Notes under the pieces: generated by a model
The model's database searches: none
Seen by the model: the letters and a program-made list of their open reading frames with translations, nothing else
What the model was told of the DNA's origin: nothing
IMG/VR virus record: IMGVR_UViG_2897341779_000002
Source: a virus
Taxonomy: Duplodnaviria > Heunggongvirae > Uroviricota > Caudoviricetes
Length of the DNA stretch: 42,611 bases
Reading direction: 5' to 3' (one strand)
Made by a program: the position numbers and the translations under genes
Shown here: positions 1 through 42,611 of the stretch, in pieces
Layout of the letters: every line of letters starts with the position of its first letter
Position numbering within the stretch: the stretch's first letter is position 1

Positions 1-201
1 TTACCCATTGGCGCGGCTTAAGAGCTTATTTTTGAATTCACAATGGTCACGATATAACCATCTTGCTCGCCCGTGGATAACTTTGGCTTTTGGCAGGTCG
101 CCGGACTTAATCCGGTCATAGATGAAGGTTTTACCGAAGCCAGTATCGGCCATGATGAATTTCAAATCAACCAGTGAATCAGGTTGTAGTTCGTGTTGCA
201 T
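1..201 (-). CDS. xis: excisionase Xis (P22-type)
   Basis: 66-aa translation (MQHELQPDSLVDLKFIMADTGFGKTFIYDRIKSGDLPKAKVIHGRARWLY...) matches my memory of P22-family Xis; in the circular map it lies directly upstream of int on the same strand. Confidence 0.85.
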   Translation of the reverse strand: MQHELQPDSLVDLKFIMADTGFGKTFIYDRIKSGDLPKAKVIHGRARWLYRDHCEFKNKLLSRANG

Positions 202-317: not shown

Positions 318-506
318 CTATCTGCGCCCACAGCATCCAGTGGTCATAGCAGTCGTTGATGTTCTCTGCTTCGATAACTCTGTTGAATGGCTCTCCATTC
401 CATTCACCTGTGACTCGGAAGTGCATTTATCATCTCCATAAAACAAAACCCGCCGTAGCGAGTTCAGATAAAAGAAATCCCCGCGAGTGCGAGGATTATC
501 ATTCAT
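318..506 (-). CDS. hypothetical early protein (62 aa)
   Basis: ORF whose ATG overlaps the stop of the upstream minus-strand gene (ATGAATGA), consistent with the densely coupled leftward operon; no recognisable domain. Confidence 0.4.
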   Translation of the reverse strand: MNDNPRTRGDFFYLNSLRRVLFYGDDKCTSESQVNGMESHSTELSKQRTSTTAMTTGCCGRR

Positions 507-783
507 TGTCGATATTCACCTTTATAGCGAACACCTTTACCGGTTTATCGCCGAAGTGCGGATGTGTGATTGTCTTGATTTCATATCCGTCATACGGGAC
601 GTCAATTCTGCGGCTGGAATCGTCGCGCTTCGGATATCCCTTTGTGATAATCAGGCGGTCATACTCGCGGAACATAATTCGCTTATTCCAGTAGTCATTA
701 CACAGGCGATACTCTTCCGTTTTCTCTCCGCGAATCATGGCATCGAAGTATTCACCTTTAACGGCAAGTTGCAGGTTAGCCAC
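499..783 (-). CDS. hypothetical early protein (94 aa)
   Basis: ORF in the leftward early operon with coupled neighbours; function not recognised. Confidence 0.55.
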   Translation of the reverse strand: MANLQLAVKGEYFDAMIRGEKTEEYRLCNDYWNKRIMFREYDRLIITKGYPKRDDSSRRIDVPYDGYEIKTITHPHFGDKPVKVFAIKVNIDNE

Positions 784-866
784 GACCTTCCTCCTTTGGC
801 TTGTGAATTTGTATCGTCATGCCGCTTTGAGTGGTGACTACAACGACAGAACCAGGCTGAAGACTG

Positions 867-1064
867 TTAAGATTGAATGCTTCGTAAAACGAAGCCAAGG
901 CCAGCGCTTTTTTTATTCTTTCGGTTCCACCAACGCCATCCATTGCTACAGGCTACACTGACAATCCACTGTCCACTCCTGTAAGCCATATAAAACCAGA
1001 TGAGCAAAACCTGAATGAATGCTATCCAGTCAATAATCGTATATTTCGCGAAGGAGACCATCAA
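867..1064 (-). CDS. hypothetical small hydrophobic protein (65 aa)
   Basis: Hydrophobic ORF whose start overlaps the stop of the upstream gene by 4 nt. Confidence 0.45.
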   Translation of the reverse strand: MMVSFAKYTIIDWIAFIQVLLIWFYMAYRSGQWIVSVACSNGWRWWNRKNKKSAGLGFVLRSIQS

Positions 1065-1633
1065 TTAACCTCCTGCGGCGGTTCCGGTAGAGGCATCCAG
1101 TACAAGGCGTTCCCTAACCACGATAAAGTGCCGTCGCTCAACTCCACGTATTCCCCTTGTACCTGTCCTGCCATATACTCGCCGTGCTTTGAATAAATTA
1201 AAATCCAATCATCTTGAGCGGGCATTCGCTCACTACAGCTTATCCAACCATCCGGAGTTACCGGATAGTTGCCCGACAGCTCGTTCAACTTGTAAGTTTG
1301 GCTTACAGGTTCGGCTTCCAGTTCTGCAATGCGCTTCTCTGCAGCTTCCAGCTCAACGCGCAGCTTCCCTACCGTTAGCGCAATTTCCTCGTTCTCCTGG
1401 TCGCGGCGTTTGATGTATTGCTGGTTTCTTTCCCGTTCATCCAGCAGCGCCAGCACGGTTTCTGGTCCGGTCAGAAATTTGAAGGCGTTGAGCGCATCAA
1501 TATCCACACCGTAATCCTTAAGTTCCTGTTCACTTAACAAATCATCATCAACTGGCAACATTAACAGGCGTTCCATTGCCGGAATTGCACGTTCTGCCGC
1601 CTCACGCAGTGCCTGATAGTTAATTTTGGTCAT
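1061..1633 (-). CDS. hypothetical early protein, coiled-coil N-terminus with DUF551-like C-terminus
   Basis: 190-aa ORF; C-terminal W-x-PLPEPP motif recalls the DUF551 family found in lambdoid early-left regions. Confidence 0.65.
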   Translation of the reverse strand: MTKINYQALREAAERAIPAMERLLMLPVDDDLLSEQELKDYGVDIDALNAFKFLTGPETVLALLDERERNQQYIKRRDQENEEIALTVGKLRVELEAAEKRIAELEAEPVSQTYKLNELSGNYPVTPDGWISCSERMPAQDDWILIYSKHGEYMAGQVQGEYVELSDGTLSWLGNALYWMPLPEPPQEVN

Positions 1634-1634
1634 A

Positions 1635-1934
1635 TCACATCCCCCTGAAGCCGTTGCATTTACGTAAAAAATCGCAGATATAGCCCTTCATTTTTTCGTG
1701 CCAATCTCGATCATTCCCATTGCACCAACCATCAGGTGGAGTCCAGTTTTCTATCAGAGCAGCCATTTTCTTTGCTTTCGCCGGAGTAGCTGTTGCGGTA
1801 TCGCAGTAATGACGAGTGTCAACCAACGTATCCATACCATCGATATCAAGTACGCAAAACCATGTGTGATTCGGCATTTCAACAGATGGTATTTGTTGCC
1901 CACGTCGACGTTTATCAATAAGACATACAGTCAC
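1635..1934 (-). CDS. hypothetical early protein (99 aa)
   Basis: ORF tightly packed between neighbouring minus-strand genes (2-nt gap, 4-nt overlap). Confidence 0.5.
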   Translation of the reverse strand: MTVCLIDKRRRGQQIPSVEMPNHTWFCVLDIDGMDTLVDTRHYCDTATATPAKAKKMAALIENWTPPDGWCNGNDRDWHEKMKGYICDFLRKCNGFRGM

Positions 1935-2467
1935 TGGTTGCCTCCTTTGCGAAGCTGGGCAGCAAAGTCAACTAACCACTCAGTCATTTCAACCTTCCCT
2001 ACCAGGTCTGAACCAGGGTGCATACAGCAATCACTCTGCGCCGCTTTGAAATCCTTATACTCATATTCTTGGGCCACCAGATTTTTTGCAGCTTCTATAG
2101 CAGCATCCACCCCCTGCGCCCGCACTTCAGCCAGAAAAGCATCGGTGGCTGGGGTTTCAGTAACATCATCTTCCCATTCGCTAAACTCCTCACGACAAAA
2201 GTCATTAAATTCCTTCTCAGATTGCTTAAGTGAGGTATTTTCAGCAGCCATCTTCGCGCATTTAGCCTCAAGGTTATCAATCGTGATTCCAGCAGAACTA
2301 CACTCCCGCAACGCCGTTTCCAGTTTTGATTCAAGTTCACCGAACTTACGGACAAGGTATTCAGCGTTTGTTTCGTTAACCTTTAAATCACTTGGGATGC
2401 ATTTACCTTTCAGAAAACCATCCATCTCAATTAGTGACATTTGTTTCATTTCTTCCCACTCCGCCAC
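1931..2467 (-). CDS. hypothetical early protein (178 aa), acidic with predicted coiled coil
   Basis: Long ORF in the leftward operon; composition resembles Ea22-type early proteins; function unknown. Confidence 0.6.
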   Translation of the reverse strand: MAEWEEMKQMSLIEMDGFLKGKCIPSDLKVNETNAEYLVRKFGELESKLETALRECSSAGITIDNLEAKCAKMAAENTSLKQSEKEFNDFCREEFSEWEDDVTETPATDAFLAEVRAQGVDAAIEAAKNLVAQEYEYKDFKAAQSDCCMHPGSDLVGKVEMTEWLVDFAAQLRKGGNQ

Positions 2468-2543
2468 ATCGCATTCAGATATTTGTTGTCATTAACAGAA
2501 CCGAAACTCTTTCTCTTAAGCAAGTCCTCTCATGGTAAATTCC

Positions 2544-2840
2544 TCAGTCATTACTGATAGCGCCATAGCGTGAGCGGTAATTACGCAGGCGCGGGTCGAT
2601 ATATTCAGGGAAGTGGGTATATGTGGCTTTGCGGAATGGTCGGATTGATGTCTGGTAAATTCGCTCGCGTTCTTCTTTCTCTGCAAGCCATATACAGTGG
2701 CGAAATTCCTTTTCCTCTTTCGTTTCCTGCGGTAGAGACATTATTCGATCGTAGTTTTTTCTGAATTTATCCAGCACCTCCGATACGGAATTGCCGGAAC
2801 AGCGGCGCGGGTCATCCGCACCATACAAAGGCGCTGGCAT
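2544..2840 (-). CDS. hypothetical early protein (98 aa)
   Basis: ORF in the leftward operon; no recognised domain. Confidence 0.55.
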   Translation of the reverse strand: MPAPLYGADDPRRCSGNSVSEVLDKFRKNYDRIMSLPQETKEEKEFRHCIWLAEKEERERIYQTSIRPFRKATYTHFPEYIDPRLRNYRSRYGAISND

Positions 2841-7389: not shown

Positions 7390-8337
7390 ATGAGCAATAC
7401 AGCAAAAATCTACGATTTCAGCGCCGCACACGAGCGCAGGAGCAACAGGATGGAGAACCAGAAAACTGGTTACATTCCGTTGTACCGGAGCATTCTGAAA
7501 CAGTCATGGGCGAAAGATGTTTATCTTCGCACCCTGTGGGAAAACCTTCTCCTGAATGCCGCCAGAAAGCCATACAAAGCGAATTTCAAAGGTCATGAAT
7601 GGCATCTGCAACCCGGTCAACTGGTTGTGACAGCAGCTGATTTAGGTCTTCAGTTATGCGACAGACATGGCAAGCCAGCAAGCCGTGATCAGGTTGAGCG
7701 GATGCTTCAGGTTTTTGTGAAAGAGGGGATGATCTCCATTGATGGAGAGAAGCAAAAAGGCCGTGTGATAACCATCACAAATTACCATGAATATGCTCAA
7801 AAAATGGACAATTTACCCGCACATGAAGCCGCACAAACAACCGCACATGATGCCGCACATGATGAAGCCAGCAATAGCGCGGCTTTCAGCGTACATGCCG
7901 CACATGAAAGCGCACATGAAGCCGCACAAACAACCGCACATCATGAACAAGAAGGTATTAACAAGAATATAAATAATACCCCCCTACCCCCCAATGGGGG
8001 AGGCGATGGGCAGGTTAAACCTGAACGTCGCAAGGCAGAACGAATCGACTACGAATCCTTCCTGAACGCCTACAACACCGAAGTCGGTGACAGACTGCCA
8101 CACGCTGTTGCGGTCAACGAGAAACGAAAACGCCGCCTGAAGAAAATCATCCCGCAACTGAAAACGCCAAACGTGGACGGTTTCAGAGCGTATGTCAGGG
8201 CGTTTGTGCATCAGGCCAAGCCGTTTTACTTCGGAGACAACGACACGGGCTGGACGGCTGATTTTGATTACCTGCTGAGAGAAGACTCGTTAACGGGAGT
8301 TCGGGAAGGGAAGTTTGCAGACAGGGGGATTGCATGA
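7390..8337 (+). CDS. replication initiation protein (O-like)
   Basis: 315-aa ORF directly upstream of and overlapping the helicase gene; carries an internal iteron array encoding the repetitive [10 protein letters not shown] peptide. Confidence 0.8.
7816..7980. repeat. origin-like iteron array plus AT-rich segment inside the initiator gene
   Basis: About eight CCGCACATGA-type direct repeats at 7816..7944 followed by AT-rich AACAAGAATATAAATAATA, the lambda-type ori layout. Confidence 0.65.
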
Positions 8338-10001: not shown

Positions 10002-10184
10002 GTGAGCAAGTGCCAAAAGTGCAATAACACAGGAATGTGTGATAGCGGAGGTTCTACTCCTTGGGGAGAGCCGATTTTTATTGAATGTGACTGCCTTATG
10101 AAAGATGACGAAAGCAGATGCCAGTTTGAAGAGAGTTGGTTACGACGTGGGGGGCGAATCTTCAGACCTTATCCGTTACCCTGA
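10002..10184 (+). CDS. Cys-rich hypothetical nin-region ORF, possibly the 5' part of a frameshifted gene
   Basis: ORF MSKCQKCNNTGMCDSGG... ends shortly after a G6 run at 10149..10154 where the next ORF (10105..10419) continues in another frame. Confidence 0.4.
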   Translation: MSKCQKCNNTGMCDSGGSTPWGEPIFIECDCLMKDDESRCQFEESWLRRGGRIFRPYPLP

Positions 10185-10419
10185 AAATCACCATGAAATT
10201 GGCAGTGGTGATATTGGTGGTCAATACGTGATGGACGATGTTCAAGGCCACTGGCAAACGTGGCAGGCATCGAGAGCAGCTATTGAAATTGAGCTGCAAA
10301 AGCCAAAGAAAGGCCCACTTCCCGGTGATTATCACATTGGCTATGACTCAGGTGCAGAATCGCAATACGAAAGCGATGTAGAGGCTATCCGCGCCGCTGG
10401 AATCAAAGTGAAGGAGTGA
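10105..10419 (+). CDS. hypothetical nin-region ORF (104 aa), possibly the 3' part of a frameshifted gene
   Basis: Overlaps the previous ORF across the G6 tract; acidic C-terminal half. Confidence 0.45.
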   Translation: MTKADASLKRVGYDVGGESSDLIRYPENHHEIGSGDIGGQYVMDDVQGHWQTWQASRAAIEIELQKPKKGPLPGDYHIGYDSGAESQYESDVEAIRAAGIKVKE

Positions 10420-10607
10420 GCATGAGTCGACGAAGTAGCTTTTTGGGGTTTGTAATATTCCTGTCCTGCACTGGTTACATCGTAATCTGGTCAATTTCGA
10501 ACATTGACCGTGGCGGGAAATATCTCATTGTAATGTTCTTTCCTTTGTTTCTTGGGTGGTACGCCGCAAGGTTGCTGGAAGAATGGGGTTACAGGCATAA
10601 AAAATAA
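10416..10607 (+). CDS. hypothetical membrane protein (63 aa)
   Basis: Hydrophobic ORF coupled to its neighbours. Confidence 0.5.
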   Translation: MSMSRRSSFLGFVIFLSCTGYIVIWSISNIDRGGKYLIVMFFPLFLGWYAARLLEEWGYRHKK

Positions 10608-31133: not shown

Positions 31134-31308
31134 ACCAACCTCCTTAGTTTTGCGCAGGATACCAGATGATGTATAGGAGTGGGAGTAAAGTTAGTCGGTG
31201 ATAGAACGGTGGTTGCATAATGATATCACGTGACGTAAACTTATTGCGCATAGCGTGTATTCAATGGATGCATAGCTATTGATAATCTCCGATAAGAAGG
31301 AGGTTTGT

Positions 31309-31875
31309 ATGAGCAATGAGACTAATGGGATTGATGAAATGTTTAGCTTGAACGCTGCCAAAGCTGGAGTCGCAATAGGTTTGCTATTACAGCAAGCTTC
31401 TGCGTTCAGTTGTGAGGTGGTTGTTACTGATAACGTTCAGCACGCTTACCATCAATCCTCATTCAGCAGTGAACGGGCTAATGATGAGCTTCATGAGGCG
31501 GTGTCTTCGATTAAAGAATTGTCTCGAATGCTGAAATACGCTTATCGTGTTCTTGCAAACGCTACCGATGAGAATGTAGACAATGTGTTGTCTATCATTG
31601 AACCAGAAAAGTCTCGATTGATAGAGCATCAATTGAGAGGACTTGAAGGGGCAATGAAATCGGTATTCAAAGAAGCTTCTGCTGATTTTAAAGAGATCGC
31701 AAGAGATATCTATATCGTTGTTGCTGATGCCAGATCTGCCGTAACCAACCTGAATAGTCTTATTAAACAACGCTCATGTGTTCCGGTTGTTTTTGATAGT
31801 TCCGTAGATATGGCTGGTTTGCGTGCGCTTGCTGAGCACGGGACTCGTGTGTTTCACTCTGGTAACTTCCACTGA
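31309..31875 (+). CDS. hypothetical protein (188 aa), upstream partner of the YafO-like gene
   Basis: ATG 31309 preceded by AAGGAGG at 5-nt spacing; stop 31873..31875 lies 8 nt before the next ATG; no domain recognised. Confidence 0.7.
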   Translation: MSNETNGIDEMFSLNAAKAGVAIGLLLQQASAFSCEVVVTDNVQHAYHQSSFSSERANDELHEAVSSIKELSRMLKYAYRVLANATDENVDNVLSIIEPEKSRLIEHQLRGLEGAMKSVFKEASADFKEIARDIYIVVADARSAVTNLNSLIKQRSCVPVVFDSSVDMAGLRALAEHGTRVFHSGNFH

Positions 31876-31883
31876 GGTAAAAC

Positions 31884-32333
31884 ATGCAAGTAACCGTGGA
31901 ATATAATCAGGATAGTTTTGACTATTTTTTCTCCCCGGTTTTTGTTGAGTTTCCTGATTTAAAACAAACACTTGTAGATGATTTTATCATCTACAAGTCT
32001 ACGGGAACGTTGCCCAGCTATTTTGGCAGAGACACCTCTTATCATCGACCTCCTGATATTGAAGATGCAGGCCTTATGCACCTTCATTTAGCAATTGGTG
32101 AAAATAAATTTGAGCCAATAAAAAATGGCACAGATATCAGCACACCGCAAAAGTTGCAGTGGCATAAAACATCCAATACCGCTCTCGTTTATGCACAAAA
32201 TCTTTTTGATGAGAACAGGTATTCATTGATTGCTCTTTTTCATCCTGTAGCTCACATGTCTGCTAACAATCATAATAGAATGAGAGTGTTAGCAGGGTAT
32301 GCGAGAGACTTTAGAAACACTATGTTTGACTAA
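31884..32333 (+). CDS. YafO-family toxin-like protein
   Basis: 149-aa product shares motifs with E. coli YafO as I recall it: DFIIYKSTGTLPSYFGRD vs DFISYKRDGVLPDIFGRD; HLHLA vs HIHLA; ALVYAQNLFDE vs HLVYCQGAFDE; SLIALFHPVAH...NNHNRM vs LLIAILKPEPH...RDNNQM. Confidence 0.7.
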   Translation: MQVTVEYNQDSFDYFFSPVFVEFPDLKQTLVDDFIIYKSTGTLPSYFGRDTSYHRPPDIEDAGLMHLHLAIGENKFEPIKNGTDISTPQKLQWHKTSNTALVYAQNLFDENRYSLIALFHPVAHMSANNHNRMRVLAGYARDFRNTMFD

Positions 32334-32334
32334 A

Positions 32335-32357
32335 CCCACCGTCAGGTGGGTTTTTTA
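32335..32357 (+). terminator. terminator hairpin between the convergent YafO-like and ClpP-like genes
   Basis: CCCACC-GTCA-GGTGGG followed by TTTTTTAT. Confidence 0.55.
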
Positions 32358-32381
32358 TAAGGAGTAATCATGATTTACCCA

Positions 32382-32918
32382 TCAAACAACCCACCAGTTT
32401 GCCTGATTGGATGCCAGCCTTGCAGTTTTTATGGAATTAATTATGCCATGCTCAAGAGCCTTGTTAGCATCCAAAATGGTCGAGTCTGCTATCAGGGATG
32501 CCCACCTAATATGGGTTCCGATGTCGATATTGAACGTCTCAACGAAGCGATCAAGATCGTTATCGAGGCATTTCCCGTACTCTCTCAATCTGGCATGGTC
32601 GGCGGCTGGGGAGGCAAAGCACCATAATAGAGGATGTAACAGGAATCTTGATAATGGGTTTGCGAAACGTTCTGAGCCAGCCAGGAAAACGATATTAGCT
32701 ATGGATTCAACATTGCTTATGTTGTGAGTTCTAACGGTAACAGGGAGTGACTTAAGAAAGTTATACGCAGTAAAGCCAGCAGCAGTTTCCCCTCCCTGAC
32801 TTGATATATGGATATTTAATTCAGTTGCGCCTTGAGATAATGCGGTGAGACAGTGGTTCTGAAGTTGCCCAACAGTGGCAGTGTTAACAGGGCATAAGAA
32901 ATGAATTGTGTGCAGCAT
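32382..32918 (-). CDS. ClpP/S14-S49-fold serine peptidase-like protein (178 aa)
   Basis: ISSQGGETAAGFTAYNFL aligns with the ClpP INSPGG...AG segment and a His is conserved near LHPLLW; ATG overlaps the mnt stop (TAATG). Confidence 0.6.
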   Translation of the reverse strand: MLHTIHFLCPVNTATVGQLQNHCLTALSQGATELNIHISSQGGETAAGFTAYNFLKSLPVTVRTHNISNVESIANIVFLAGSERFANPLSRFLLHPLLWCFASPAADHARLREYGKCLDNDLDRFVETFNIDIGTHIRWASLIADSTILDANKALEHGIINSIKTARLASNQANWWVV

Positions 32919-33166
32919 TATTTTTCATCCTTAGCATACATGGTCTTTAGCGTCTCAAGTAGCGCCTCTTTGAATTTATCAGCTTCTTGCTGAGCAAATG
33001 ACTCAACTGACTTTGGCGACCTATCTTCATCAATCGCGGCTTGCAAAATCATGACGATCTCGGAGTTAACAGAGCGACCATTTTTTGATGCTCTGACAGC
33101 AAGAGCCTCGCGTAAAGATTCAGGGATTCTTACCGTAGTTGGAGAAATTGACACACCCTTTGCCAT
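32918..33166 (-). CDS. mnt: Mnt repressor (ribbon-helix-helix)
   Basis: From the internal Met the 82-aa product MAKGVSISPTTVRIPESLREALAVRASKNGRSVNSEIVMILQAA... resembles P22 Mnt (NGRSMNSE motif). Confidence 0.8.
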   Translation of the reverse strand: MAKGVSISPTTVRIPESLREALAVRASKNGRSVNSEIVMILQAAIDEDRSPKSVESFAQQEADKFKEALLETLKTMYAKDEK

Positions 33167-33280
33167 ATAACACCTTTGGTATTCAATTTGATAGCAAAGT
33201 GTATGCAAAAAAATTTTGACTAGATATACTCACTTTGCTATCTTTTGTATTCGAAAAGAGTTGTTTGCGTGGAGGGTAAC
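33167..33280. promoter_or_regulatory. immI control region (Pant/Pmnt with operator-like inverted repeat)
   Basis: Perfect 11-bp inverted repeat ATAGCAAAGTG (33203..33213) / CACTTTGCTAT (33231..33241) flanking TTGACT; TATCTT follows 17 bp after TTGACT; lies between divergent mnt and arc. Confidence 0.55.
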
Positions 33281-34668: not shown

Positions 34669-34697
34669 ATGACAGACATTACAGCCAATGTGATTGT
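34669..34697 (+). other. orphaned 5' end of the tailspike gene (codons 1-10, MTDITANVIV)
   Basis: ATG with GGAG RBS encodes MTDITANVIV, the conserved P22-family tailspike N-terminus; the frame is broken by the IS at 34698 and resumes after 37278. Confidence 0.75.
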
Positions 34698-34890
34698 TGC
34701 GTATTTTCATGAAAGGAGATCACTCAATAACTTCCATCGAGATCGGGTAATAACATTTGAACAGATCGCTGAATAACATCGATGGAGATCACTTTTGACT
34801 CATTTTGTTATTCAGTGATCTCCATCAATGTTATTGGAACTTCACAGGTGTGTTGATCTGTATCTTTTGCCATTCCGGTAAAGGATACCT

Positions 34891-36432
34891 ATGCCAACAG
34901 TTCCAATTTCTATGAGAAAACTTAAAGAAATTCTTAGGCTTAAATACGGTGTTGGACTCAGCCATCGACAAATTGGTCGTAGTCTTGCAATCTCCCCTTC
35001 CGTTGTATCCAGATATGCTAATCGGGCGGCTCAACTTGGCATAAAGCAGTGGCCCTTACCTACAGGATGGGATGATACAAAACTAAAACATGCGTTCCTT
35101 CAGACCCAGGTTAAGATGAAGAAGCACTCTCTGCCTGACTGGGCTACAGTACACCGGGAACTGCGTAATAAATGCGTGACGCTGCAGCTACTCTGGGAAG
35201 AATACTGTGAGCGTAATCCAGGCGGTTTTTACAGCTATAACCATTACTGCCGGATGTACCGTGAATGGCTCAAAACCACTTCACCATCAATGCGTCAGGT
35301 ACATAAAGCTGGCGAAAAACTTTTCGTTGATTACTGTGGACCTACCGTTGGCGTTACCGACCCTGAGACCGGAGAAATAAGAACTGCTCAGGTCATCGTA
35401 GCTGTTCTCGGGGCATCAAGTTACACATGGGCAGAGGCCACCTGGTCTCAGCAGCTTGAAGACTGGGTGATGAGTCATGTTCGCTGCTTCCAGTGGTTGG
35501 GTGGCGTTCCTGAACTTGTTGTTCCGGACAATCTGAAAAGCGCCACATCCAGGGCATGTAAGTATGATCCTGACGTTAACCCTACCTACCAGCAGATGCT
35601 TGAGCATTATAATGTCGCAGTTTTGCCTGCGCGGCCACGTAAACCGAAAGATAAAGCCAAAGCTGAAGTTGGCGTTCAGGTTGTTGAACGCTGGATCATG
35701 GCCCGAATCAGGCATGAGATCTTCTACAGCCTTGCATCGCTTAATCAGCGCATTCGGGAGTTGCTGGAAAGACTGAATAACAAAATAATGCAGAAGTTGG
35801 GTTATTCACGTGCAGAACTCTTCATCCAGCTTGATAAACCCGCACTGAAGCCTCTTCCTGAAGCCAGTTACAGTTACACCCTGGTGAAGAAAGTCAGAGT
35901 TCATGCCGATTACCACGTGGAAATCGACAAACATTACTACTCGGTTCCATGTTCGCTGTTAGGCCAGCAACTGGAAGCATGGATCTCCGGAGAACTGGTA
36001 AGACTCTTCAATCAGGGGCAGGAGGTTGCTGTGCACCCGCGCAAGCGTACTTATGGCTACAGTACCCGCAACGAGCACATGCCTGAAGCTCATCGACAGC
36101 ATGCCACCTGGACGCCAGAGCGTCTTCTGGAATGGGCGGGGCACATAGGCAGTGAAACTCATAGTTATGTGCTTCATATACTGAACTCTCGTCCACATCC
36201 GGAACAAAGCTATCGCTTCTGCCTTGGACTCCTGAACCTTCATAAAAAATACAGTAAAGCCAGACTTAATGCAGCATGTGCAAGAGCTCTGAAAACAAAG
36301 GTATGGCGTCTGTCAGGTATTAAATCGATCCTGGAAAAAGGTCTGGATAAACAACCTGTTCAGGATCCAAAACCAGATCTGTTATCCACGATGGAACACG
36401 AAAACGTACGCGGCAGTGAGTATTACCACTGA
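34891..36432 (+). CDS. istA: IS21-family transposase IstA
   Basis: 513-aa ORF with N-terminal HTH-like segment and DDE-type integrase core, immediately followed by istB. Confidence 0.85.
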   Translation: MPTVPISMRKLKEILRLKYGVGLSHRQIGRSLAISPSVVSRYANRAAQLGIKQWPLPTGWDDTKLKHAFLQTQVKMKKHSLPDWATVHRELRNKCVTLQLLWEEYCERNPGGFYSYNHYCRMYREWLKTTSPSMRQVHKAGEKLFVDYCGPTVGVTDPETGEIRTAQVIVAVLGASSYTWAEATWSQQLEDWVMSHVRCFQWLGGVPELVVPDNLKSATSRACKYDPDVNPTYQQMLEHYNVAVLPARPRKPKDKAKAEVGVQVVERWIMARIRHEIFYSLASLNQRIRELLERLNNKIMQKLGYSRAELFIQLDKPALKPLPEASYSYTLVKKVRVHADYHVEIDKHYYSVPCSLLGQQLEAWISGELVRLFNQGQEVAVHPRKRTYGYSTRNEHMPEAHRQHATWTPERLLEWAGHIGSETHSYVLHILNSRPHPEQSYRFCLGLLNLHKKYSKARLNAACARALKTKVWRLSGIKSILEKGLDKQPVQDPKPDLLSTMEHENVRGSEYYH

Positions 36433-36443
36433 TACGGGATCCA

Positions 36444-37193
36444 ATGATGAATCATCTTTACGAACAACTGACCGCACTTAAACTCACCGGCTTCCGTGAT
36501 GCGCTTAAAAAGCAACTTGCTCAGCCGGGCACATACCAGGAGCTGGGCTTCGAAGAACGCCTGTCATTACTGACAGCAGAAGAACTAACCTGCCGTGAAA
36601 ACAGGAAGGCAGAGCGTCTGATCAAACATGCACGGTTCAGACTTAATGCTGAGTTATCAAAGCTGGATTATCGTAACAATAGAGGGCTGGACAGGGCCCT
36701 CATCCGTTCACTCAGTCAGGGAAACTGGTTAACCCTGAAACAAAATATTTTACTGACCGGGGCCACCGGCAGCGGTAAAACGTTCCTGGCATGTGCACTT
36801 GGTCATAATGCCTGCCGACAGGGATACAAGGTCTACTATTATCGCCTTAAAGCGCTGATGGAACAGTGCTATCAGGGGCATGCTGATGGAAGATACAGCA
36901 AACTTTTGACCAGGCTGAATAATAGCGATCTGCTGCTTCTGGATGACTGGGGGCTGGAACCTCTCTCATCAGAACAGCGTAGCGACCTGCTGGAAATAGT
37001 GGATCTGATGTACCAACGAGGCTCAATCATCGTAGTGAGCCAGTTGCCGGTGGAAAACTGGTACAAAATGATCGGAGACTCCACACATGCGGATGCCATC
37101 CTAGATCGACTGGTTCATGGCAGTATCAAGATCGAACTTAAAGGAGAATCAATGCGGAAAATACAATCACCGTTGACCGAAGGAGATCAGTGA
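36444..37193 (+). CDS. istB: IS21-family helper ATPase IstB
   Basis: 249-aa ORF with Walker A LTGATGSGKTFLACAL and Walker B LLLLDDWG. Confidence 0.9.
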   Translation: MMNHLYEQLTALKLTGFRDALKKQLAQPGTYQELGFEERLSLLTAEELTCRENRKAERLIKHARFRLNAELSKLDYRNNRGLDRALIRSLSQGNWLTLKQNILLTGATGSGKTFLACALGHNACRQGYKVYYYRLKALMEQCYQGHADGRYSKLLTRLNNSDLLLLDDWGLEPLSSEQRSDLLEIVDLMYQRGSIIVVSQLPVENWYKMIGDSTHADAILDRLVHGSIKIELKGESMRKIQSPLTEGDQ

Positions 37194-37287
37194 AGGTAAT
37201 TTAAAAACGGTTCTGTGAAAGTGACACGAACCGATCTCCATCGATGTTACTCACCGATCTCCTTCACGGTAATACGCAATTGTATCG

Positions 37288-40200
37288 ATGCCTTCGCAAC
37301 TCTTCACTATGGCGCGTTCTTTTAAAGCCGTAGCCAATGGCAAAATTTATATCGGTAAAATTGACACTGACCCGGTAAATCCTGAAAACCGGATTCAGGT
37401 TTATGTAGAGAACGAAGACGGCTCTCACGTTCCTGTTTCGCAACCAATCATCATTAACGCTGCTGGTTACCCTGTATATAACGGACGGATTGCCAAGTTC
37501 GTAACTGTGCAAGGCCATTCTATGGCTGTGTACGATGCGTATGGCGTACAGCAGTTCTATTTCCAGAATGTGCTGAAGTATGATCCTGATCAACTACGGC
37601 AGCAATTAGAAGACCCAGATGGAGCGAATAAATACCCAAAACTTCAGATAGCAAGATGGAGAGACAGTTATGATGTAAGAGGTTGGGGGGCTATTGGTGA
37701 TGGTGTTCATGATGATACATCAGCTCTATCAGAATTACTTTCTGTTGCAACAGGTGGTGAAAAGATAGATGGGCGAGGGCTTACTTTTAAAGTATCAACT
37801 CTTCCAGATGTCAGTCGATTTAAAAATGCTCGTTTTTTATTTGAGAGAATACCGGGTCAGCCTCTTTTTTATGTTTCTGAAGATTTTATCCAGGGAGAGT
37901 TATTTAAAATTACAGATACACCGTGGTACAACGCCTGGACGCAGGATAAAACGTTTGTATATGACAATGTCATCTATGCGCCTTTTATGGCTGGAGACCG
38001 CCATGGTGTAAATAACCTCCATGTTGCATGGGTTCGCTCAGGAGATGACGGGAAGACCTGGACAACGCCGGAATGGCTTACAGATTTACATGAAAACTAT
38101 CCCACAGTTAACTATCACTGCATGAGTATGGGGGTTGTCAGAAATCGCCTTTTTGCTGTAATTGAGACGCGGACCGTGAGCGGAAATAAACTGCAGGTTG
38201 CAGAGTTGTGGGATCGCCCAATGAGTCGCAGCCTTCGCGTTTATGGTGGTATAACGAAAGCAGCAAATCAGCAAGTCGCTTATATTCGCATTACTGATCA
38301 CGGATTATTTGCTGGTGATTTTGTCAACTTCTCAAACTCTGGTGTTACAGGTGTTACCGGGAATATGACGGTGACTACTGTTATTGATAAAAATACTTTT
38401 ACAGTTACGACGCAAAATACCCAGGATGTGGATCAGAATAACGAGGGTAGATACTGGAGTTTTGGTACATCATTTCACTCGTCACCATGGAGAAAAACCA
38501 GTCTTGGAACTATTCCTTCTTTTGTTGACGGAAGCACTCCTGTTACTGAGATTCACAGTTTTGCGACGATTAGCGATAACAGTTTTGCTGTTGGCTACCA
38601 TAATGGTGATATTGGTCCACGCGAGCTTGGGATACTCTATTTCTCTGATGCTTTCGGTTCTCCTGGTAGCTTTGTTCGCAGACGCATACCTGCAGAATAT
38701 GAGGCGAATGCATCTGAGCCATGTGTAAAATATTATGATGGCATTCTGTATCTGACGACCAGGGGGACATTAAGTACTCAACCCGGTAGTTCATTGCACA
38801 GAAGCTCTGATTTAGGTACATCATGGAATTCTCTTCGCTTCCCAAATAATGTTCATCACTCAAACCTTCCTTTTGCCAAAGTTGGCGATGAGCTGATTAT
38901 TTTTGGCAGTGAGCGCGCATTTGGTGAGTGGGAAGGAGGAGAACCTGATAACCGTTATGCAGGAAACTATCCAAGAACATTTATGACCAGAGTTAACGTC
39001 AATGAGTGGAGTCTGGATAATGTAGAGTGGGTTAATGTTACTGATCAGATTTATCAGGGCGGAATAGTTAACTCTGCGGTTGGTGTTGGTTCAGTTTGTA
39101 TCAAAGACAACTGGCTGTACTACATTTTCGGTGGGGAAGACTTTCTAAACCCATGGAGCATAGGGGATAACAACAGAAAATATCCTTATGTTCACGATGG
39201 TCACCCGGCTGATTTGTATTGTTTCAGGGTGAAAATTAAACAGGAAGAATTTGTTTCAAGGGATTTTGTCTACGGAGCCACTCCTAACAGAACGCTTCCT
39301 ACTTTTATGTCGACGTCAGGCGTGAGGACGGTTCCTGTACCCGTTGATTTCACAGATGATGTTGCCGTCCAGTCACTGACTGTCCATGCAGGTACATCAG
39401 GACAAGTTCGCGCGGAAGTCAAACTTGAGGGTAATTACGCCATTATTGCGAAGAAAGTACCGTCTGATGATGTTACCGCTCAGAGATTAATCGTTAGCGG
39501 CGGTGAAACAACGTCTTCAGCAGATGGTGCAATGATAACGTTGCATGGTTCCAGAAGCAGTACTCCACGTCGCGCGGTATATAACGCACTCGAACATCTT
39601 TTTGAGAACGGAGATGTTAAACCTTATCTTGATAATGTAAATGCTCTTGGTGGTCCGGGAAACAGGTTCTCGATAGTTTATCTTGGCTCCAATCCTGTGG
39701 TTACCAGTGACGGAACATTAAAGACAGAGCCGGTCTCTCCTGACGAAACATTGCTGGATGCCTGGGGTGACGTCAGGTATATCGCTTATAAATGGCTGAA
39801 CGCTGTCGCTATAAAGGGGGAAGAAGGGGCGAGGATACATCATGGTGTAATCGCGCAGCAACTTCGTGATGTTCTTATTTCTCACGGACTCATGGAAGAA
39901 GAAAGCACAACATGCCGCTATGCCTTTCTTTGCTATGACGATTATCCCGCAGTATATGATGACGTCATTACTGGCCAAAGGGAAATGCCGCTGACTGATA
40001 ATGACGGGAGCATCATTGTTGATGAGGATGATAATCCAGTGATGGTAATGGAAGACATCATTGAGCGCGTTGAAATAACGCCAGCAGGATCTAGATGGGG
40101 GGTCAGACCTGATCTCTTATTCTATATCGAGGCAGCATGGCAGCGCAGAGAAATAGAAAGAATAAAAGCTAGGTTAGACTTAATAGAAGGGAAGCACTAA
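37288..40200 (+). CDS. tailspike body: P22-type head-binding domain fused to an endosialidase-like domain and C-terminal intramolecular chaperone domain; separated from its first 10 codons by the IS
   Basis: N-terminal ...[39 protein letters not shown]...VLKYDPDQ matches the P22 tailspike head-binding domain; Asp-box-like SGDDGKTW and SSDLGTSW; C-terminal S-DGTLK (Ser/Lys at i, i+5) and [10 protein letters not shown] recall the endosialidase chaperone domain. Confidence 0.8.
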
Positions 40201-40353
40201 ATGTTTCGTTGGCGTCAAAAATATGAACTGATCACATAAAGAAGTAAGTACATTGGCAAAAAACATTGACGTCAACGAAATTAAATATAAAAATTTAAAT
40301 GCTTTTTAATGACAAGAAAAGTAACTAGTGGTAAAATAACGTAGGATACTAAT

Positions 40354-41214
40354 ATGTTAAGACTCAAGACTCAAGACTCAAGACTCAAGACTCAAGACTC
40401 AAGACTCAAGACTCAAGACTCAAGACTCAAGACTCAAGACTCAAGACTCAAGACTCAAGACTCAAGACTCAAGACTCAAGACTCAAGACTCAAGACTCAA
40501 GACTCAAGACTCAAGACTCAAGACTCAAGACTCAAGACTCAAGACTCAAGACTCAAGACTCAAGACTCGTTTTCCGTTGATGATAATGGGTCAGGTAATG
40601 TTTTTGTATGTGGAGATCTTGTAAATAGCAAAGAGAATAAAGTTCAGTTCAATGGAAACAATAACAAACTTATTATAGAAGATGATGTTGAGTGTCGATG
40701 GCTTACCGTAATATTTAGGGGTGATAATAATTACGTAAGAATACATAAAAACAGTAAGATTAAAGGTGATATTGTCGCAACAAAAGGTTCAAAAGTTATT
40801 ATCGGTAGAAGAACGACAATAGGTGCAGGTTTTGAAGTCGTCACTGATAAGTGCAATGTTACAATTGGCCATGACTGCATGATAGCAAGAGATGTTATTT
40901 TGCGTGCATCAGATGGGCATCCTATATTTGATATTCATAGCAAAAAAAGGATTAATTGGGCAAAAGATATCATTATATCTAGTTACGTATGGGTAGGGAG
41001 AAATGTCTCTATAATGAAAGGAGTATCTGTTGGAAGCGGATCTGTCATTGGGTATGGGAGTATTGTAACTAAAGATGTGCCATCTATGTGTGCAGCAGCC
41101 GGTAATCCAGCAAAAATAATAAAAAGAAATATAATATGGGCAAGAACGGATAAAGCGGAGCTAATTAGTGATGACAAGAGATGCTCCAGCTATCATGCGA
41201 AGCTCACGCAATAA
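40354..41214 (+). CDS. neuO: phase-variable polysialic acid O-acetyltransferase NeuO-like (hexapeptide-repeat acyltransferase)
   Basis: 286-aa ORF: N-terminal RLKTQDS x10 encoded by AAGACTC heptads, then left-handed beta-helix hexapeptide repeats (IGAGFEV, IGHDCMI, VGRNVSI, VGSGSVI, IGYGSIV); location downstream of the tailspike as described for CUS-3. Confidence 0.85.
   Translation: MLRLKTQDSRLKTQDSRLKTQDSRLKTQDSRLKTQDSRLKTQDSRLKTQDSRLKTQDSRLKTQDSRLKTQDSFSVDDNGSGNVFVCGDLVNSKENKVQFNGNNNKLIIEDDVECRWLTVIFRGDNNYVRIHKNSKIKGDIVATKGSKVIIGRRTTIGAGFEVVTDKCNVTIGHDCMIARDVILRASDGHPIFDIHSKKRINWAKDIIISSYVWVGRNVSIMKGVSVGSGSVIGYGSIVTKDVPSMCAAAGNPAKIIKRNIIWARTDKAELISDDKRCSSYHAKLTQ
40359..40568 (+). repeat. 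30 tandem copies of the heptanucleotide AAGACTC inside the neuO 5' coding region
   Basis: Counted directly: 210 bp of perfect AAGACTC repeats = 30 units, a multiple of 3, so the reading frame is maintained. Confidence 0.9.
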
Positions 41215-41273: not shown

Positions 41274-41302
41274 TACAAAAAAGCCCGTTGGAAGCGACGG
41301 GC
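41274..41302 (-). terminator. rho-independent terminator downstream of int
   Basis: Minus-strand stem GCCCGT/ACGGGC with 8-nt loop followed by a run of 6-7 T. Confidence 0.55.
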
Positions 41303-41453: not shown

Positions 41454-42611
41454 TCACTCTACCTTCTCATCAAGCCAATCCGCCCACCACTGCATCATTT
41501 CTCTGCGCTTATCGAGATACTGAGCATGGTTGTAAATACCGCGCACAGATCCGCCGTTGGCATGTGCCAGTTGCACTTCAATAGCGTCAGCAGGCCATTC
41601 GTGCTCGTTCATAATCGTGCTGAATTCATGCCTGAATCCGTGACCGCTTTCTAGACCCTCATAGCCGATTTGTTTGATCACAAGTAGAACCGCGTTCTCG
41701 CAGATTGGCTTCTTCTTATCGTTGCGCCCGGCAAAAACAAACTCTGATACTGGTTTGGTGATGGAGCTTAGCGTAGTGAGAAGTTCAACCACCTGGTCTG
41801 ACATCGGGACCACATGAATTTTGCGTCCCTTCATCACACTGGCGTCGATGGTGATAATCCTGTTTTCAAAATCGACGTTCTTCCATAGCATGGAACGAAG
41901 CTCTTTCGTTCTTAGGGCTGTGTAGCGTAAAACTTTGGTCGCAATGAGCGATACGATACTTCCTGAAAATGTTGCCAGTGCTTTGTTGAATGCAGGGATC
42001 TGGTCTGCAGGAAGAAACGGGAAGTTCTTCTTGCGGTATCCCTTCATGGCGTCAGCAAGGTCAGGTGCCGGGTTATATTTAGCCCTACCAGTGACAATAG
42101 CGTAACGGAAAACCTCGCCGCATCTTCTGCGGGCTTTGTTGGCTCGCTCCATTGCACCGCGATCTTCAAATCTGCGGATTACTTCCAGCAGTTGCATCGG
42201 CTCAATATCCTGAATTTCAAGGCCGCCGATGATAGGTAAAATGTCGTCATCAAACATTTTTGCAAGTTCAGTTGCATAGCCTACTGACCAGACTTGCTTC
42301 TTGTGCTCGTACCATTCCTTGTAAATCGCACTAAAGGAATTGTTGTTAGACGAAGCCTTTTTCGCTTTTACCGGATCGATGCCAACCGAGATGTCTTTCC
42401 TCGCGGTCCATGCTTTATCTCTTGCCTCCTGCAAAGTCATAAGTGGATATTTTCCGACGGTCAGGATTTTCTCCTTACCGTCAATCTTGTAGCGAAGCTG
42501 CCATACCTTTTTCCCTGATACAGGGACATAAAGGTACAGGCCATTACCATCGAGTAGGCGGTATGGTTTTTCTTTCGGCTTTGCTGCTTCAATCTGCTTA
42601 ACGGTGAGCAT
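41454..42611 (-). CDS. int: tyrosine integrase (P4/P22-type)
   Basis: 385-aa ORF whose N-terminus MLTVKQIEAAKPKEKPYRLLDGNGLYLYV aligns with the P4-family integrase arm-binding domain and whose C-terminus carries the R...HxxR...Y catalytic region; start codon is at the last base of the window. Confidence 0.9.
   Translation of the reverse strand: MLTVKQIEAAKPKEKPYRLLDGNGLYLYVPVSGKKVWQLRYKIDGKEKILTVGKYPLMTLQEARDKAWTARKDISVGIDPVKAKKASSNNNSFSAIYKEWYEHKKQVWSVGYATELAKMFDDDILPIIGGLEIQDIEPMQLLEVIRRFEDRGAMERANKARRRCGEVFRYAIVTGRAKYNPAPDLADAMKGYRKKNFPFLPADQIPAFNKALATFSGSIVSLIATKVLRYTALRTKELRSMLWKNVDFENRIITIDASVMKGRKIHVVPMSDQVVELLTTLSSITKPVSEFVFAGRNDKKKPICENAVLLVIKQIGYEGLESGHGFRHEFSTIMNEHEWPADAIEVQLAHANGGSVRGIYNHAQYLDKRREMMQWWADWLDEKVE

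Follow-up and report, generated by a model that had tools for sequence, protein, structure and literature searches.

The window analysed here, a stretch of 42,611 nucleotides, corresponds to a prophage that extends from torI/xis (1..201, minus strand) to int (41454..42611, minus strand), the gene of the IntS integrase, which was assigned from Pfam matches (Phage_integrase and Arm-DNA-bind_3) and genome annotations. P22-like head, portal, terminase, ejection, lysis, immunity and integration genes are present, as can be seen from the PGAP annotation of the identical region of E. coli JCM 20135. Between the end of the endosialidase tailspike gene (position 40200) and int lies neuO, a gene for a polysialic acid O-acetyltransferase (40354..41214, plus strand; 286 amino acids and a stop codon), in the same layout as in the record of phage CUS-3 (CP000711.1). 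The beginning of neuO is occupied by a tract of heptanucleotide repeats (40359..40568, plus strand), which is the subject of this work.

The neuO gene and its heptad tract

The identity of the neuO product was established by comparison with the crystallised enzyme. Residues 45-286 match residues 3-244 of PDB 3jqy chain B with 100% identity over 242 residues (E 1.8e-160), the number of heptads being the sole difference between the two proteins, and the Pfam Hexapep family is matched with 40.4 bits against a cutoff of 27. The active-site residues listed for the enzyme (PMC3046976) are all present in the invariant catalytic part, a left-handed beta-helix encoded by 40569..41211 (plus strand): Met176, His189, Trp213, Arg216, Trp262 and Arg264, with the numbering of the +12 variant shifted by 42, whereby His189 and Trp213 correspond to His147 and Trp171. 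Since identity to the characterised enzyme is complete, NeuO of this prophage is predicted to carry out acetyl-CoA-dependent O-acetylation of alpha-2,8 polysialic acid. The second-best PDB match is OatWY of Neisseria meningitidis W/Y (PDB 2wlc, E 6e-31), likewise a left-handed beta-helix acetyltransferase acting on a sialic acid capsule, with active-site His, Trp, Met, Arg, Trp and Arg in common with NeuO (PMC3046976). OatWY is a distant homologue only; it has no repeat tract and, unlike NeuO, is not phage-borne.

The original prediction described 30 in-frame AAGACTC units that form 210 bp of perfect repeats, and two procedures agree with this description. Tandem Repeats Finder reports a period of 7, 30.0 copies, 100% matches, no indels and the consensus AAGACTC, and a string comparison shows that all 210 bases equal 30 consecutive AAGACTC units. 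No partial heptad is found at either edge, the tract being bordered by ATGTT upstream and GTTTTCC downstream. The ATG (40354-40356) is followed by TT and then by the tract, i.e., the units begin two nucleotides past the start codon, where the tract is known to be inserted in neuO (PMC3046976). Outside the tract, AAGACTC occurs only three times in the 42.6-kb window, both strands taken together, and 30 perfect head-to-tail copies therefore cannot be attributed to chance. The translated product reads MLRLKTQDS(RLKTQDS)9FSVDD..., that is, ML followed by ten RLKTQDS heptads and by FSVDD. There is no in-frame ATG, GTG or TTG upstream, so that 40354..41214 is the longest open reading frame possible in this frame.

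A Shine-Dalgarno sequence, AGGA, can be read at 40343..40346 (plus strand), 7 nt 5' of the ATG. The GC content of neuO is 36% and that of the spacer separating it from the tailspike gene 27%, compared with 47% for the whole window, as expected if the gene and the spacer were acquired as cargo. A consensus scan of this AT-rich spacer yields a candidate neuO promoter, TTGACG-17-AAAAAT (40266..40294, plus strand), and a second promoter-like site, ATGACA-17-TAAAAT (40309..40337), from which the transcript would start inside the Shine-Dalgarno sequence. The six sites found by the promoter scan around neuO do not differ significantly from the 4.9 expected by chance, and in the terminator scan of the same region sites were no more frequent than chance. 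A terminator-like GC-rich hairpin with a T-run is located downstream of int, between int and neuO (41283..41302, minus strand).

The 1,043 bases around the tract are 100% identical to those of CUS-3 from E. coli RS218. The identity covers the flanks, the promoter region and the catalytic domain; in CUS-3, too, two nucleotides separate the ATG from the first unit, and neuO lies between the endosialidase tailspike gene and int. In CP000711.1, the tract bears the annotation 'poly(psi) domain; contains 19 copies of heptanucleotide repeat AAGACTC'. The copies of neuO differ only in heptad number, which is 30 (ON) in the window and 19 (OFF) in the CUS-3 record, with 12 in the crystallised variant. 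We conclude, with a probability of roughly 95%, that these heptads form the simple-sequence repeat known as poly-psi, and that the neuO gene in which they lie is cargo of a P22-like prophage of the CUS-3 type. That NeuO with this heptad is established for CUS-3-type prophages, as the original prediction also stated, is evident from the literature (PMC3046976, PMC13001214). No sequence feature contradicting the reading of the tract as a poly-psi contingency switch was found in the window.

Repeat number and reading frame

Since seven is not a multiple of three, only copy numbers divisible by three keep the catalytic domain in frame. neuO was rebuilt in silico with 0-3 and 27-33 AAGACTC units. 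Full-length protein was obtained whenever the number of units was divisible by three. With a remainder of one (for example, 31 units), a stop codon is reached 3 codons past the tract (...LVFR*), and with a remainder of two (for example, 29 units) 17 codons past it (...FLYVEIL*). Addition or loss of one unit from the 30-unit allele would accordingly leave a product of 77 or 87 amino acids, which bears out the earlier expectation that a single-unit change shifts the frame. The first in-frame ATG past the tract corresponds to Met174, within the catalytic domain, and internal restart in an OFF allele is therefore unlikely. Natural OFF alleles behave in the way predicted by the simulation: the 19 units of CUS-3 lead to a product of 49 amino acids and the 26 units of JCM 20135 to one of 80. 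The same 861-nt coding sequence, also with 30 repeats, is annotated by PGAP in strain MS8345. It thus follows that 30 units leave the reading frame open and add ten RLKTQDS heptads to the N terminus of NeuO, as had been anticipated from divisibility by three; the neuO gene of the window is genotypically ON. The term ON refers here to the genotype of one assembled consensus; the acetylation phenotype, the level of activity and switching are predicted from published work on neuO.

Matches to the neuO region were retrieved from 206 of 5,426 complete E. coli genomes and were nearly complete in 157. Heptad numbers derived from match spans varied from 3 to 60 across 79 distinct complete genomes, in which the BLAST identity of the flanks, with gaps at the tract counted, was 97.4% or higher. 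UM146, with a non-integer span-derived count, was omitted, as were a few records with BLAST pieces in separate places, which were not countable from the match table; for APEC O1, the span comparison suggests 39 units. Six loci were fetched and counted directly (19, 21, 26, 60, 30 and 3 units). All six tracts are perfect, and the counts agree with the span estimates or with the annotation of the records. The three reading frames are represented in the 79 genomes by 28, 25 and 26 alleles; 35% are ON, a proportion that could not be distinguished from one third (binomial p = 0.72). These numbers can be set beside a published set of 64 complete K1 genomes with 3-53 repeats, 65.6% of them OFF (PMC13001214), and the reported overall range of 2-93 copies, ON only at multiples of three, with single-unit changes being most frequent (PMC3046976). 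The longest tract in our set belongs to E. coli PE144 (NZ_OZ287278.1, 459..878), in which neuO carries 60 perfect heptads, is ON and encodes 356 amino acids; this is above the maximum of 53 in the 64 complete genomes (PMC13001214) and below the 93 known from PCR surveys. Exactly 30 units, with flanks 100% identical to those of the window, are also found in two unrelated complete genomes, MS8345 and MS20653. The +30 allele is therefore an ordinary one, inside the documented range.

The strongest single result comes from the CUS-3-type prophage of JCM 20135 (NZ_AP043894.1). This prophage and the window are identical at all 42,401 non-tract positions, with zero substitutions, and carry the same ISEc12 insertion in the tailspike gene; the ISEc12/tailspike junction occurs in just one of the 5,426 complete E. 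coli genomes, namely in JCM 20135. The tract, however, has 26 units in JCM 20135, where neuO is OFF, and 30 in the window. Since the junction is common only to these two prophages and the 42,401 bases are identical, it follows that the tract changed by four units within one lineage, from OFF to ON or in the reverse direction, while the rest remained unchanged, an assembly error in either record being conceivable. In JCM 20135, dsdC is located immediately left of the prophage and a tRNA-Arg gene just beyond int, the P22-like prophage position at argW. The source recorded for JCM 20135, 'feces from diphtheria convalescent', is the classic K-12 provenance; with a genome of 4.90 Mb and a CUS-3-type prophage, this metadata looks questionable.

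The difference between the two records raises the possibility that the number 30 is itself an artefact of assembly or the consensus of a mixed population, and that the true or predominant state is OFF. Long perfect repeats can be mis-assembled, a single assembly underlies the count of 30, and the record of the JCM 20135 prophage gives another number although the prophage is otherwise the same. Cultures can also be measurably mixed: in a clonal culture of MS7163, fragment analysis showed 21 repeats in 93% of cells, 20 in 1.9% and 22 in 5.4% (PMC13001214). On the other hand, a perfect tract of 210 bp is within the ordinary span of long reads, the two unrelated genomes with exactly 30 units speak for a real allele, and every span-derived count that was checked directly proved to be correct. 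A mixed culture, moreover, is compatible with a contingency locus and does not compete with it. We consider an erroneous or unrepresentative count improbable.

Taken together, the analysis reveals a perfect intragenic repeat whose unit length is not divisible by three, a copy number that sets the reading frame, OFF alleles that are truncated without rescue, and a tract that is hypervariable relative to the surrounding DNA. Wide variation in copy number among near-identical prophages is what one expects of a slipped-strand contingency locus, and this part of the original prediction is upheld.

Interruption of the tailspike gene and probable decay of the prophage

It had also been proposed that the phage carries both an endosialidase tailspike that targets polysialic acid and an enzyme that modifies it. 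Both genes are indeed present; the tailspike gene, however, is severed after codon 9 by an insertion sequence, in contrast to CUS-3. Its native ATG is at 34669, and a 5' stub (34669..34697, plus strand) of nine codons and two bases (MTDITANVI-V) ends with ATTGT, the left copy of a 5-bp target-site duplication. The stub is followed by ISEc12, a 2,581-bp element of the IS21 family (34698..37278, plus strand; istA 34891..36432, istB 36447..37193), which is identical base for base to ISEc12 of MS7163 and is flanked by the ATTGT duplications. When the element and one ATTGT copy were removed in silico, a tailspike of 981 amino acids identical to that of MS7163 was restored. Just inside the left end of ISEc12 there is an imperfect tandem repeat of 23 bp (GGAGATC...CATCGAT-like, 3.3 copies, 34715..34790), and GGAGATCGGT motifs at the right end resemble it; these may be the multiple terminal transposase-binding repeats of IS21-family elements.

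In the remainder of the tailspike gene (37279..40200, plus strand), the longest open reading frame starts at internal Met12 (37288..40200; 970 amino acids), so that 11 residues are missing from the beginning of the P22-type head-binding domain. Pfam matches comprise Head_binding (profile positions 12-113 only), End_N_terminal, End_beta_propel, End_beta_barrel, End_tail_spike and Peptidase_S74. Neither a Shine-Dalgarno sequence nor a promoter-like site was found before the Met12 open reading frame by inspection of the sequence and by the promoter scan. Given the split by the IS element and the lack of start signals before Met12, the prophage is probably unable to produce a functional tailspike, translation from the original ATG being improbable, and is thus probably defective. 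The intact tailspike (endosialidase) gene that marks a functional phage is absent from the window, and the prophage should not be assumed to be a source of infectious CUS-3 particles or of endosialidase.

PGAP annotates five early-region pseudogenes in JCM 20135 (window ~500..2600 and ~10100..10420), among them a frameshifted DUF4752 gene, a partial ead/Ea22-like gene, a partial DUF2737 gene and a frameshifted hypothetical gene. These pseudogenes are further evidence of prophage decay. Virion genes close to the same site have been damaged independently in other neuO-carrying prophages. In MS7163, ISEc12 is inserted in the scaffold gene; MS7163 had at first appeared colinear with the window (100% coverage), which was rejected when k-mer mapping placed its ISEc12 in the scaffold rather than the tailspike gene. 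MS8345 has lost most of the tailspike gene in a deletion associated with IS3, in FY26 an IS3 lies inside that gene, and in FDAARGOS_1296 the tailspike gene is absent and IS1A abuts neuO. neuO and int are intact in all four of these IS-damaged prophages. MS20653 is without the 2,586-bp block of IS plus duplication.

The independent IS hits and deletions in virion genes suggest recurrent decay or domestication of the prophage, and CUS-3-like prophages have been described as decay-prone (PMC9659370). A more specific proposal, that domestication of a CUS-3 prophage is under way in the lineage studied here, with virion genes hit by IS elements in independent lineages, neuO and int kept intact and neuO still switching, is possible but in our view rather doubtful. 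If true, it would mean selection to retain the capsule-modifying switch and to shed the capsule-degrading enzyme, and the difference between 26 and 30 units would show that several units can change in the time over which strain stocks diverge.

Two further regions of the prophage deserve mention. Inside a gene annotated as 'replication protein' in JCM 20135, two clusters of four 12-bp-spaced CCGCACA(T/A)GA-type repeats (7817..7941) precede an AT-rich stretch and a repeat that contains CCCCCC (7977..7992); the clusters look like lambdoid origin iterons within an initiator gene. At ~31300..33170, there are accessory genes in an immI-like region that has the ejection genes on one side and ant on the other: a YafO-family type II toxin gene with a small open reading frame upstream, and a gene for a ClpP-like protease paired with a gene for an Arc-family repressor.

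Predicted switching of neuO and its consequences

The tract as single-stranded DNA has almost no self-structure, with a minimum free energy of -1.6 kcal/mol compared with -15.3 for shuffled sequences (z = +3.7), and hairpin-driven slippage was rejected. Plain out-of-register re-annealing between units, for which no hairpin is needed, is therefore the likely route. The steps that follow are drawn from published work on neuO. Slippage during replication would add or remove heptads, mostly singly, and would turn translation of NeuO off and on stochastically in a clonal population; a switch from 38 to 39 units was seen in 2 of 30 colonies (PMC8653822). In the ON state, NeuO would acetylate O7/O9 of the K1 capsule. 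As the catalytic efficiency of NeuO is linear in heptad number (PMC3046976), the +30 enzyme should be relatively active. Acetylation would protect the cell from neutrophils and K1-specific phages while making it more sensitive to serum, as has been described for O-acetylation (PMC13001214). The host regulator DsdC, whose gene adjoins the prophage, would additionally activate neuO transcription, which is DsdC-dependent and drops more than 7-fold without DsdC (PMC9659370, where phage protection is also described).

An acetylation phenotype beyond the genotype thus requires transcription and a K1 capsule of the host, and neuO could be in frame and yet phenotypically silent if the host had no polysialic acid capsule or if the gene were not transcribed. 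The window comprises the prophage only, with no kps or neu genes visible; the dependence on DsdC and the signs of decay described above, the IS element in the tailspike gene and the frameshifted early genes of the identical JCM 20135 copy, point in the same direction. However, JCM 20135 has dsdC right next to the prophage, and the functional copies of CUS-3 and MS7163 show 100% identity to the window in the promoter region of neuO, in its Shine-Dalgarno sequence and in its coding sequence. Many neuO-carrying genomes, furthermore, are labelled K1 in their records, and King et al. reportedly found CUS-3 in K1 strains only (in 2007). A silent neuO gene appears unlikely to us. The notion that the tract is a fixed repetitive N-terminal protein domain and not a switch, which could appeal to the fact that the heptads are translated and tune catalytic efficiency (PMC3046976), is already refuted by the genome survey and the JCM 20135 comparison: roughly two in three natural alleles are out of frame, and each frame is as common as the other two (79 genomes; PMC13001214), as is expected of a freely slipping tract and not of a conserved protein domain, the heptads are 100% identical in DNA, silent positions included, and prophages that show no other difference do differ in the number of units.

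We thus return to the contingency switch. In the well-known contingency loci of Haemophilus and Neisseria, e.g., lic1A with CAAT and mod with AGCC/AGTC repeats, the repeat is also intragenic and its unit is not a multiple of three. As in neuO, a surface-modifying enzyme is turned ON and OFF by reversible frameshifting; neuO differs in its unusual heptanucleotide unit and in the translation of the tract to a functional domain that tunes activity. The neuO locus is prophage-borne and resides in E. coli, which is, to our knowledge, otherwise poor in simple-sequence contingency loci. Among P22-like genomes, receptor-modifying cargo next to int/att is exemplified by oac of Sf6 and gtrABC of P22. 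Like neuO, these genes alter the polysaccharide recognised by the phage's own tailspike and thereby protect from superinfection. They modify the O-antigen, whereas neuO modifies the capsule, and phase variation of P22 gtr is epigenetic (Dam/OxyR) and not due to slipped-strand frameshifting.

The neuO switch is already known, and its 2-93 units, the multiple-of-three rule and genome-wide surveys, including a survey of repeat number in complete genomes from 2026 (PMC13001214), are published. The only additions made here are the base-for-base identity with the JCM 20135 prophage outside the tract and the IS-split tailspike gene. neuO is the textbook example of a phage-borne slipped-strand contingency locus of E. 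coli and affects capsule antigenicity of K1 strains, phage resistance, killing by neutrophils and serum sensitivity. With 30 units, the strain that carries this prophage is genotypically ON, and its ten-heptad enzyme is predicted to be relatively active.
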